Source: Microthyrium microscopicum
Taxonomy: Eukaryota
Assembly: GCA_010405405.1 (NCBI GenBank)
Contig: MU004230.1
Span: 1,770,627-1,834,626 of the forward strand
Reading direction: 5' to 3'
Length of the DNA stretch: 64,000 nt
Shown here: piece by piece, positions 27,284 through 31,221 of the stretch
Layout: each line of letters opens with the position of its first letter
Numbering within the stretch: the first letter of the stretch is position 1
Notes under the pieces: model-generated
What the model saw: only the letters and a program-made list of their open reading frames with translations
Told to the model about the DNA's origin: nothing
The model's database searches: none
Made by a program: the position numbers and the translations under genes

Positions 27284-27670
27284 AGTATCGCATTGGGAGG
27301 TTGCATCTTGCGTTTTGAAGCTAGTTTGCATTTATGATACCCAGTCTTCCATAGCGCAATCAAATTTGTCGATATCTATGAGTTGATACTTGTCTCAATC
27401 TCCATGGTGGTTTTCACCTCTCACTTTAGGTCAACGATGCTTGTGAGCAGATGAAGCAGGCGCACCACGAACCAAAAGTCGGTTCACTAAAAGCACCTTA
27501 ACCACGGCGACACCCGCAATACCACACCTGAAATAGAAATTGCCTACCTTCGCACATGAATACTACGCTTTCCCCAGCGGCACTTGATTCAGCATATTTC
27601 CATCAAACCAAATCCAACATCCAACAATTCTTAGCACCCCAACCAATATCACACAGCCAAAACCTCCAAA

Positions 27671-28840
27671 ATGCCGAGCAAGGACGAGACATTCGATATA
27701 CCCAAACAGACATCAAGTTCAGTGACAAAGTGGGCATCAAAAGCGGCATCAAAAGCAGGCAACTCCATCCTCGCCTACCTAGACGCTGCTCTCGACGGCC
27801 GCGCCGAACAGCCAATCAGCGCCCCCGCTGAGCGCCAACGTAGCTCCACAACGCCGCGAGCAGCCCTCTCAGACCCTGAACCCCGTCAAAGATCAGCAGA
27901 GCAAGAGTCCAAGCTCCCCGGAGGCCGCCCATCACTCCATCAAGCTCCAACTTCATCATCATCAACCCGCCGCAACTCCTCCGCCGCTAGACGAGAGCCA
28001 TCCTACGAGATCCCCCTTCCAACAATCCCATCTGCATCAGCAGTCCTCAACACGCTCCTAGACCACGTGCCCTTTCGCCGCCGCACTGCAAAAGAAGCTG
28101 GCGATTACGATCCATACTGGGGCAATCCCGAGTACGCGCGCACAGATTCCAACGCGGAGTTGAAGCGTGTTGGCTGGTACAAGGTCACGTTCAATCGCGA
28201 CGATAGCTGGGTGGAGTTTGAAGATCCGCCGGATCATTTGAAGAGTGAGGCTGCTCGGAAGCGGCAGGATAGTTTGGATAGAGAGTTGGAGGAGTCATTT
28301 CAGGGCGAGGCTGAGGCTGAGAGATATAAGAAGTTGAGTCAGAAACAATTGGAGGAGTCGTTTTATGGTGAGGACTGGGCTGAGGAGGATAAGAAGGAAC
28401 GGGAAGAGAAAGAATTGAGGGATAGGGAGGAAGTGGAGTGGAAGAATCGTGAGCGGGCGAGATTGAAGAAGGAGGAACGAAAGAGGGAGAAGTACGAGAT
28501 TGCTTTGAAAGAAGCTGAGGAACTTGAGCGCGAGAAAACAGCAGAAAAGAAGAAACGACAAGAGAAAGAGAGACGCGAGCGACAAAAGCGTGAGCAGGTG
28601 GAGCGGGAACAACTGGAACGGGAGCAGGCTGAACCTCTTGGAATAAAGCCACTCAAAGCGAAGGCTGTCAAATCTGAGCCAAGCAAGGGGAAAGATATCG
28701 AAGAAGGTTAGTATTCTGATCATTTGCCATATTTGTTCATTTGCTAATATCATAGATCAGACGAAGACGAGGAAATCTCGCAAAACCCGTTTTATCGAGA
28801 ACCGAGATACTGGCAAGCTCTCAATGGCGCCGGAAGTTGA
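27671..28840 (+). CDS. hypothetical protein with Ser/Pro-rich N-terminus and Glu/Lys/Arg-rich coiled coil; 3' end ambiguous (see findings)
   Basis: ORF 27671-28711 ends inside a GTTAGT donor at 28707. Branch GCTAAT at 28743; acceptors at 28755 (TAG) or 28760 (CAG). The end given here is for the CAG acceptor (371 aa, ...DEDEEISQNPFYREPRYWQALNGAGS*). Confidence 0.65.
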
Positions 28841-30341
28841 ATCCTCAAGACGGGACTTTCCGTCAACAAAACCGCATGCATCGAACGTATCAAATAAACC
28901 GCCTGTACGCTATACACTTATTGTCCGATTGCCATTTGCCAGAGGGGACTTTGTTGATCCTCAACCTGTCAACTGGGATGCTGCCAAAGATAGAAAGCTA
29001 TGGAAACTCATATCTCGGACTGGAACAAAGCTGTCTAACCGTGGGCCTACCTCGTCTGCATCGGCTTCAGAAGGCGGTGCTGGATCAGCCAATGAAGTCG
29101 ACTGGGAGGCTCGAGCCGCGGAGTTTGGAGTTGACACCCGATTTCTATTACAACAAGCTGCTTGGCTTTACGAAAGACATTTGGAGCATGTCAAGAAGCA
29201 GGTTGTGAGACTTAGAGCTGGAAGTACTGCTGGAACTCCCGTACCGGGCCAAACAAGTATGCTAGGAAAGAAATCTGCTCTACAACCAGGCTCAAGAGCT
29301 CCATCTGCAATGTCGGGCCGCTCTCGTGATAGTCCTCTTCCCAAGGTGGACAATTCTATTGCAAACACCGCTTCTCGTCCATCGGCCCTCTCTAGAACAC
29401 CATCAACCAATACTATAACACAAAGTCGCTTATTACCAACGCAAGGGAATCCTTCGTCTCCTAGAATCCGCTCTGCTAGACCATCATCAATACGACGTCA
29501 AACTGGCACCCTGGCAAACGTCAAACCCCCTGGTGAAGGCTTAGATTCTCCGGGCGTAGAATCAGATTCTTCGTCCTCTTCATCATCGGACGAAAATGTT
29601 GGTCAGATGTCACGCAGTGTCGCGGCCTTCCGTAGACCACCACGCTTCGGCGCCAAACGTCATGCAGCACTACTCGGTCATGATGGCGATGATGAGAATG
29701 AGACTGATGAAGATGAAGATGACGAACCAACATTTTTATCCTATGCTCAGGTTGATGGCACTTCCAAAAAACCTTCTGATCCAGATATGGGTGACACGCT
29801 CAAAGATGGACTCGCTAAACGCGGCTTTGCAAATCGCCATGGCACGACTGCTGAAAACTCCGAATCAAATACCGCTACAATACCCACTACGACTACAGGC
29901 CTCAAACAACCAAAACCTACCCGCCCTGTTGCTGGCGAGCCCATCCCATCCCAGGAGCAACAACAACCACAAACTATCCGATCCCCTGGCGTTCCCACGG
30001 AATCTTCAGTGAGCTCTGCCAGTTCCGCCGCAACTCCTGCCCGCCGCACCTCGCAAATACCCTCGCCTCGTCACCGTGCCGATCTCGCAAGACTAAGTAG
30101 TCCACGAAGACACACGGGTGAAACTAGCGACGGAACGCCCAGTATGGGCAGCAGCTTCAGTGACCTGGACGGTAAGCTTTCCTGCCCCTACATGTTGAAG
30201 GTCTCAATATACTGACTGGTTGTAGATGCTTCATTGACACAATCGGCGCTTGAAGAAGCGTTAGCGAGTAACTTTCGCAATGGCGGCGCGAGTCGGCTGA
30301 GCAATATTAGCCATGCTTTTCGTTCACGTTATATGCAGTGA
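28824..30341 (+). CDS. ATG29: autophagy-related protein Atg29, ~487 aa
   Basis: Exons 28824-30171 and 30226-30341; intron 30172-30225. N-terminal YTLIVRLPFARGDFVDPQPVNWDAAKDRKLW...FLLQQAAWLYERHL and C-terminal SDGTPSMGSSFSDLDDASLTQSALEEALAS...SRY match filamentous-fungal Atg29. Confidence 0.9.
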
Positions 30342-31221
30342 GCATTTCTTATCAATTTGTTATTTGTTTGGCGATGCGGGTAGGACAGATGTCCAAGGCT
30401 GGATTTGTTTTTTAACAGCACATCATGTGCGTTCGGAAGTAACGTAATCGGTACGCACCGCTCGTAGTTTTAGGGTCAATTTGATACTGTATGTCACTCT
30501 TCTTTCCCCATTCATTTCTTGAAATGCGGCTGTTTCATGGCCTCATTAAGGCTGTGTTCTCCCCCACGATCCAATTCCCTTAACTTGTTCAGCATAAATG
30601 TAGTTGTTCGTCATCACGCATGCTGATATAGAGGAACAACAGAGCTGGTGATCCGTAGTTAGAGTTTACAGTCCTGGATGGAATTAGTCCACCAATTAGG
30701 GATGCTTTTCACTCAAGATTCCATTGGTAGTCCAGCCTAATAACGCGATAGCAGCTTGGTCTGCACACAGCCATTTCTGGACTTGTGCAGCATGGGGCGA
30801 ATTCAACACCATTCCCAACTAGCCACCCAACCATCGATTGCCTTGCTGTCGAACACGTATCTTCTCGAACAGCTCATCTGGAATAAAGTCTACAGCAACT
30901 GATAAAAATATCATTACCAACACGTATGGTTCAAGGCAACAGGGTTCCCTCAGTAAGCCACTGGTTTAAGGCTCATGTAAGGCTGAATCAGGTAGAATAG
31001 AATATGTCTTGCTGTCGTGCTGACAGTGCCCAACAAAATGCTCCTCTACACGTCGCCATCGAAATTCGACGTGGCCCTCGATTATTGCTGTGCAAGCACC
31101 AATAATACGTCCCTCTATCAAAAATGGTTCGCATGGTTCAGTCTCCTTTGACCTCTCCAGAGGAACTATCAAATACCTGCTATAAACTTCCTCGGCTTCA
31201 TATTCGCAGCTCAACTTGAAG

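Follow-up and report, generated by a model that had tools for sequence, protein, structure and literature searches.

In Microthyrium microscopicum, ATG29 begins within the tail end of a nearly ATG-free, unannotated gene upstream

How is a start codon reached by ribosomes when it lies inside the end of the gene in front of it? The question is raised by a locus in a 64,000-nucleotide (nt) stretch of the genome of the filamentous ascomycete Microthyrium microscopicum. The whole stretch is called the window below, all coordinates are window positions, and the analysis covers this one genome. An unannotated gene, referred to as ORF1 (ORF, open reading frame), lies here upstream of ATG29, which codes for the Atg29 subunit of the autophagy scaffold. 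ATG29 begins within the last 17 bases of ORF1, and ORF1 is nearly ATG-free.

Arrangement of ORF1 and ATG29

Read without splicing, ORF1 runs from ATG to stop over 27671..28711 on the plus strand (346 amino acids, aa) and ends with ...ATC GAA GAA G|GT TAG. Its stop codon lies inside the splice donor GTTAGT (28707-12), the donor is followed by the branch element GCTAAT and two acceptors, TAG and CAG, which are 5 nt apart, and the unspliced ORFs are separated by 112 nt. All of this had been described in an earlier reading of the letters alone (the sequence-only reading) and was recovered when the coordinates were re-read from the sequence. The elements of the locus are the following.

27557..27670, plus strand: ATG-free tract of 114 nt, probable 5' untranslated region (UTR) of ORF1 (from ATG positions, with an inferred transcription start)
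27671..28706, plus strand: ORF1 exon 1, 345 codons and the first base of a split codon (sequence, codon score, RNA contigs)
28707..28760, plus strand: ORF1 intron of 54 nt, GTTAGT...GCTAAT...TAG..CAG, spanning the unspliced stop TAG at 28709-11 (RNA contig)
28743..28748, plus strand: branch-point-like GCTAAT with a putative branch A at 28747 (sequence only; fits DYTRAY)
28753..28755, plus strand: proximal TAG, candidate acceptor for a fusion (sequence; unused in the RNA contig)
28758..28760, plus strand: CAG acceptor (used in the RNA contig)
28761..28840, plus strand: coding part of ORF1 exon 2, ending ...DEDEEISQNPFYREPRYWQALNGAGS, with TGA at 28838-40
28824..28840, plus strand: 17 nt shared by the end of ORF1 and the start of ATG29, ATGGCGCCGGAAGTTGA (sequence, RNA junction; start codon backed by the deposited protein and by relatives)
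28824..30341, plus strand: ATG29, 487 aa, with exon 1 at 28824-30171, an intron at 30172-30225, exon 2 at 30226-30341 and TGA at 30339-41

The acceptor in use can be read from assembled contigs of one public run (X1), which were aligned to 27300-30600. The kind of this run was only guessed as RNA; the contigs are spliced, and X1 is therefore RNA or cDNA. They cover ORF1 exon 1 at 27300-27712 and at 27981-28704. An 852-nt contig (depth 1275) comprises 27981-28704 and 28759-28886, and its joint is reported as 'skips 54, GT..AG (cut +2)'. This places the intron at 28707-28760 and identifies CAG as its acceptor, with 28706 joined to 28761. None of the X1 contigs lies within 28707-28760 or carries the 49-nt skip expected from the TAG acceptor, and the bin depths over the region are fully explained by the four contig pieces listed for it. 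Thus, of the junctions 28706-28756 and 28706-28761, which the sequence-only reading had set against each other, the latter alone is found. In the X1 assembly it is the CAG form that occurs and dominates, with the limit that assembled contigs drop rare variants and may have lost a rare isoform.

Splicing to CAG gives ...IEE-DEDEEISQNPFYREPRYWQALNGAGS*, with the TGA at 28838-40 and the 17-nt overlap with ATG29, exactly as had been predicted for this acceptor. The spliced ORF1 product has 371 aa in total and contains no internal Met. The spacing of the two acceptors can be compared with an intron rule used by one group for Aspergillus nidulans, DYTRAY N(4,24) HAG, as given in the available part of their report (PMC5587772): TAG follows the branch element by 4 nt, which is the minimum of that rule, and CAG follows it by 9 nt.

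The start codon of ORF1 stands in the context CAAAATGC. The 114 nt in front of it probably hold the 5' UTR, because the ATG at 27556 (context CACATGA) would open an out-of-frame ORF of 91 codons (27556-27831) across the ORF1 start codon. If transcripts start further upstream, this ATG creates an overlapping upstream ORF; otherwise it limits the ORF1 5' UTR to at most 114 nt.

The downstream gene is ATG29. Its product matches the Pfam family ATG29_N (PF18388) over residues 30-66 with E = 1.8e-19 and 69.8 bits against a cutoff of 25.7. A protein search returned 622 proteins at E <= 0.001, the best of them (P0002) being a 487-aa protein of Microthyrium microscopicum, 100% identical and named hypothetical by its source. 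The deposited length of 487 corresponds to the 449+38 residues counted from ATG 28824, hence the deposited Atg29 model is not fused. In the three closest relatives (P0003-P0005, 53-56% identical) 24-28 residues precede the conserved V/S-YTLIVRLPF motif, and the window protein is alike in this respect. The conserved C-terminal motif SDGTPSMGSSFSDLD is present as well, and the invariant columns of an alignment of eight Atg29 sequences include G437-D449. A second X1 contig (6225 nt, depth 269) covers ATG29 from 28857, with the 54-nt intron 30172-30225 spliced out; the depths of the two contigs, 1275 vs 269, are not a ranking of the genes.

ATG content between the two start codons

The region between the ORF1 and ATG29 start codons is characterized by an almost complete lack of ATG in any frame.

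27674..28823, plus strand: ATG-poor tract of 1150 nt with a single ATG in any frame (counts, simulations, window-wide rank)
28365..28418, plus strand: the sole intervening ATG (context TTTATGG, T at -3), opening an ORF of 17 codons whose end is 400 nt short of the ATG29 start

One ATG is seen in this tract where 15.6 are expected from a Markov-1 model and 16.7 from base composition, and the minimum reached in 5000 Markov simulations of the tract is 4. The depletion is directed at this triplet: none of the 64 falls further below expectation than ATG (observed/expected 0.06), TAA comes next with 0.42, and the complement of ATG, CAT, is not depleted, with 20 seen and 14 expected. The only ATG left is harmless, with T at -3 and with a short ORF that terminates well ahead of ATG29.

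The depletion persists when the protein is held fixed. Synonymous-codon shuffles of ORF1 contain 6.05 ATGs on average (standard deviation 1.55), and a fraction of 0.0022 of them has one ATG or none; with codons drawn from the window-wide usage the mean is 7.9 and the fraction 0.0002. The same shuffle control applied to seven other ORFs of the window reveals no depletion (fractions 0.21-0.99). The absence of Met itself is also unusual: in ten other ORFs of the window Met averages 2.0%, which gives P = 5e-4 for zero Met in 370 residues. The contributions of the parts of the tract are listed below.

N-terminal part, 597 nt: 0 ATG seen, 6.2 expected (Markov-1), shuffle mean 4.28, fraction of shuffles with as few as seen 0.0006
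Charged half, 435 nt: 1 ATG seen, 6.7 expected (Markov-1), shuffle mean 1.66, fraction 0.448, not significant
Intron plus linker, 118 nt: 0 ATG seen, 1.9 expected (Markov-1)

The tract is an extreme of the whole window. Its count of 1 is the minimum among 125,702 windows of 1150 nt on both strands; elsewhere the minima are 7 and 6, with medians of 22 and 21. Of the ATG-free gaps in the window, the longest (694 nt) begins at 27671 and the fourth in length (459 nt) at 28365. At other fungal Atg29 loci the 1150 nt upstream of the start contain 10-33 ATGs, with none of 44 loci below 10; these 44 are the loci with the full upstream length, out of 73 with a domain match and 69 with a start call.

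Routes to the ATG29 start codon

The explanation favoured by us, to which we would give about an even chance, is that ATG29 is reached by ribosomes scanning through ORF1 on a bicistronic or long-leader mRNA. We infer both a transcript spanning the two ORFs and the scanning mechanism itself. Two genes of the same strand would be packed into one expression unit. ORF1 would encode an orphan of 371 aa, in which the model shows disorder in the N-terminal half, a short beta element and a single long helix of charged residues. Removal of its last intron via CAG places its end at 28840, 17 nt inside ATG29. For an upstream region of its own, ATG29 has no room. Ribosomes could then either leak past the ORF1 start AUG at 27671 on a bicistronic mRNA or load on transcripts that start just inside ORF1. 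If ribosomes do scan through ORF1, selection would have cleared almost all ATGs from the stretch that separates the start codons. The sequence-only reading had already suggested an overlapping or bicistronic locus; the overlap is confirmed by the RNA junction, and the bicistronic character is supported in part, by the extreme ATG depletion.

A more specific version can be put forward tentatively, at somewhat below an even chance. It sees in ATG29 the second cistron of a filamentous ascomycete mRNA whose first cistron, of 371 codons, has been purged of Met codons and of out-of-frame ATGs to permit leak-through over 1.1 kb. Start-codon stringency, which changes under starvation, would then determine how much Atg29 is made, instead of a promoter belonging to ATG29, and the orphan ORF1 may have acquired its present form, or even arisen, within that leader.

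Several observations weigh against scanning. The ORF1 start context CAAAATGC has A at -3, which is a strong context by the fungal consensus, and the weak context associated with leaky scanning is not found here. With so strong a context, little leakage past ORF1 would be expected, barring a very short 5' UTR or the use of a second start site. The ATG29 start, for its part, has a context of middling strength (T at -3, G at +4). The ORF1 contig and the ATG29 contig abut, sharing no more than 30 nt (28857-28886), and the X1 contigs leave a hole at 27713-27980, inside ORF1. The ATG29 contig continues for about 4.6 kb into the downstream genes; contigs routinely bridge neighbouring genes here, so a contiguous contig is no proof of one shared mRNA. 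With the protein fixed, the charged half shows no significant depletion (1 seen, 1.66 expected), and the whole depletion pattern rests on one genome.

Some details of the contigs should be mentioned in their own right. At the hole of 268 nt (27713-27980) one contig stops exactly at 27712 and the next starts exactly at 27981, with no loose ends. This gap could be meaningless, as a filter can omit records; a transcription start site within it would suit the variant with a long ATG-free leader. A 43-nt contig (depth 11.9) joins 28857-28886 to 13 letters of sequencing adaptor. Thus some fragments end exactly at 28886, 46 nt past the ORF1 stop, where the ORF1 and ATG29 contigs also break; these ends could reflect a transcript end or a library artefact. 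Past the ATG29 stop, an intron of 154 nt (GTATGT...CAG, 30489-30642) is spliced out in the ATG29 contig. Behind its putative branch element, GCTGAT (30622-27), splicing passes over two close AGs (30630-31 and 30632-33). The intron belongs either to the 3' UTR of ATG29 or to the 5' UTR of the next gene (ORF from 31222, plus strand).

Among the alternatives to scanning through ORF1, the one that survives best assumes ordinary overlapping tandem genes, and we regard it as rather unlikely. ATG29 would have its promoter and start site in the 3' part of ORF1 or in the intron, and hence a short leader, and the scarcity of ATG would be a by-product of a T-poor, Met-free, low-complexity protein. It is consistent with the general overlap of neighbouring transcripts in this region, where the ATG29 contig runs through the intron 30489-30642 into the downstream genes, and with the composition of ORF1, in which T makes up only 14-16% and the charged half lacks any depletion beyond the level dictated by the protein. 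Co-transcribed genes of Agaricomycetes are also transcribed independently, according to the available part of the corresponding study (PMC4503453). However, the depletion survives the Markov-1 and synonymous-shuffle nulls, is specific for ATG with CAT spared, and constitutes the extreme of the whole window. Moreover, the depletion spans the N-terminal 600 nt, far upstream of any plausible start site for a short leader.

It is quite improbable that ORF1 is untranslated and that the whole tract is simply a long ATG-free leader of ATG29. In its favour are the lack of any homolog, family or deposited protein found for ORF1 and a low recognition value (1034) in the protein atlas, where no usable match was obtained. 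Against it stand the properties of the frame itself, which is open for 358 codons from stop to stop, starts in a strong context, and carries an intron placed exactly over the stop codon, whose removal adds 26 codons. Codon log-odds were trained on the other long ORFs of the window, and in frame 1 the N-terminal segment of ORF1 scores +0.13 bits per codon, the middle one +0.31 and the charged one +0.35; the other two frames score negative in all three, and ATG29 scores +0.19, so that the frame-specific bias of ORF1 is as strong as that of ATG29. With its open frame, its codon bias and an intron that extends the frame across the stop, ORF1 looks coding.

The searches for relatives of ORF1 were negative throughout. 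No homolog was found by a word-based protein search (lengths 189-604 aa), no Pfam family at E <= 0.1 or at E <= 10, and no relative among the PDB sequences. A phmmer search against 1.84 billion representatives returned zero matches, the protein itself included, and ORF1 therefore appears to be absent from the deposited proteome; it was presumably dropped from the annotation because it overlaps ATG29. By tblastn, no relative of the ORF1 or exon-2 peptides (E <= 0.85) and none of six neighbouring ORFs of the window (E <= 1e-5) was detected within 5 kb of Atg29 at 80 metagenome loci, kept from 259 that encode a relative. Synteny is therefore of no help. ORF1 is thus a transcribed, spliced gene with a coding-type codon bias and with no match in the protein collections searched.

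The single-sequence AlphaFold model of ORF1 has a mean predicted local distance difference test score (pLDDT) of 63.9 and is poor apart from one long helix. In this model the first half is disordered, three short strands occupy residues 165-184, and a charged helix spans residues 188-320, with pLDDT >95 over about 241-310. The 'coiled-coil' module assigned to ORF1 by the sequence-only reading survives as this predicted long charged helix. On the minus strand opposite the charged region there is a 152-aa ORF rich in L, F and S (28295-28753), which is the mirror image of the GA-rich codons and almost certainly not a gene. The idea that ORF1 is a hidden Atg31-like partner was considered and rejected for want of support, given that not even other Dothideomycetes have a relative of ORF1.

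The sequence-only reading had proposed a regulated competition between TAG (28755) and CAG (28760), with the former yielding a functional ORF1-Atg29 fusion protein of 855 aa. Its geometry is correct: splicing to 28756 puts ORF1 in frame with ATG 28824 (345+1+22+487 = 855 aa), the product reads ...IEE-D-QTKTRKSRKTRFIENRDTGKLS-MAPEV..., and the fused frame would avoid premature termination. TAG, 4 nt past the branch element, is just inside the A. nidulans N(4,24) range as given in the accessible part of PMC5587772, and its use at a low level would be compatible with contigs that drop rare variants. Nevertheless, we give this fusion very little credence. The CAG junction alone has been assembled, the deposited Atg29 stands alone, and its relatives have short N-termini. 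A linker of 22 codons is free of stops by chance with P of about (61/64)^22 = 0.35, and the ATG29 frame is open from 28647, stop to stop, regardless of splicing; the open linker is thus not statistically remarkable and about what chance gives. The two frames of exon 2 are indistinguishable by codon score (0.129 vs 0.128 bits per codon), no protein in the collections searched matches ORF1, fused or alone, and a fusion offers no reason for the ATG depletion. The open frame across the tandem acceptors is accordingly no evidence of a fusion protein, and an isoform made through the TAG acceptor would be a minor by-product at most.

Long Atg29 proteins known from elsewhere do not resemble such a fusion either. 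A search limited to 787-2245 aa found 17 of them, and all ten that were read are extended C-terminally and have Atg29 at the N-terminus, so that no N-terminal fusion to Atg29 occurs among these ten. The 17 deposited 'Atg29' proteins (P0122-P0138) are 790-920 aa long and belong to other fungi. Eight come from taxa of Pleosporales; the remaining nine, which also carry Pfam PF22749 (Arb2 domain by source name), come from Hypocreales, with Fusarium and Claviceps among the genera. In the ten read, the C-terminal addition is a second protein, which points either to merged gene models or to true read-through with the downstream neighbour.

Termination-reinitiation, in which ribosomes would finish ORF1 at 28840, back up 17 nt and restart at ATG 28824, can be set aside as highly improbable. 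Some RNA viruses do reinitiate at overlapping stop/start sites, and an ORF1 stop overlapping the ATG29 start would suit this. To reinitiate after an ORF as long as the 371 codons of ORF1, however, ribosomes require a special tethering element, and TGGGA, the tethering motif of calicivirus type, was not found on the plus strand over 27298-28974. Scarcity of AUG near the ORF1 stop would fit reinitiation too, as can be gathered from the available part of a paper on algae (PMC11892635), but the depletion over the first 700 nt of ORF1 would be left unexplained.

Relation to known systems

The protein encoded by ATG29 does not itself differ from Atg29 of the Atg17-Atg31-Atg29 scaffold (PF18388). It has the N-terminal domain and the motif SDGTPSMGSSFSDLD, it agrees with its Dothideomycete orthologs in length and in start position, and only the setting of the gene is unusual. 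The last intron of ORF1 resembles known tandem 3' splice sites a few bases apart, since here too two AG acceptors separated by 5 nt share one branch element and their choice sets the frame. Here, however, the distal CAG alone is seen in RNA, and the proximal TAG stands at the minimum branch spacing of the rule cited above (PMC5587772, as far as its accessible text goes).

Polycistronic read-through transcripts have been described in Agaricomycetes; in the available part of that study (PMC4503453) each of the genes concerned is also transcribed on its own, and interference of read-through with the gene downstream is considered possible. The present locus is similar in that tandem fungal genes may be co-transcribed, with RNA assemblies contiguous across neighbours. 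In contrast to the present case, the accessible text of that study describes no upstream ORF purged of ATG. A limited literature search on bicistronic expression in fungi and on leaky scanning there found no natural leaky-scanning bicistron in a filamentous ascomycete.

The closest parallel is provided by the nuclear bicistrons of green algae (PMC11892635). According to the part of that work available, depletion of AUG before ORF2 accompanies leaky scanning there, and the ORF1 contexts are weak. As far as this text goes, the likeness comprises two ORFs on the same strand with a tiny gap or none, depletion of ATG between the start codons, and a rare internal ATG in weak context. The differences, judged from the same text, are that ORF1 is long here (371 codons), has a strong-looking start context and overlaps ATG29 by 17 nt; furthermore, the host is a filamentous ascomycete and the single transcript is a proposed one.

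If scanning through ORF1 is true, the locus would be a clear natural case from Pezizomycotina of a long first cistron kept free of ATG in order to feed a second one. It would mean that scanning across about 1.1 kb of coding sequence can be permitted to eukaryotic ribosomes, and it would tie the dosage of an autophagy scaffold subunit to the control of translation initiation. Probably, the locus belongs, as a new member, with the known leaky-scanning or long-leader bicistronic loci.

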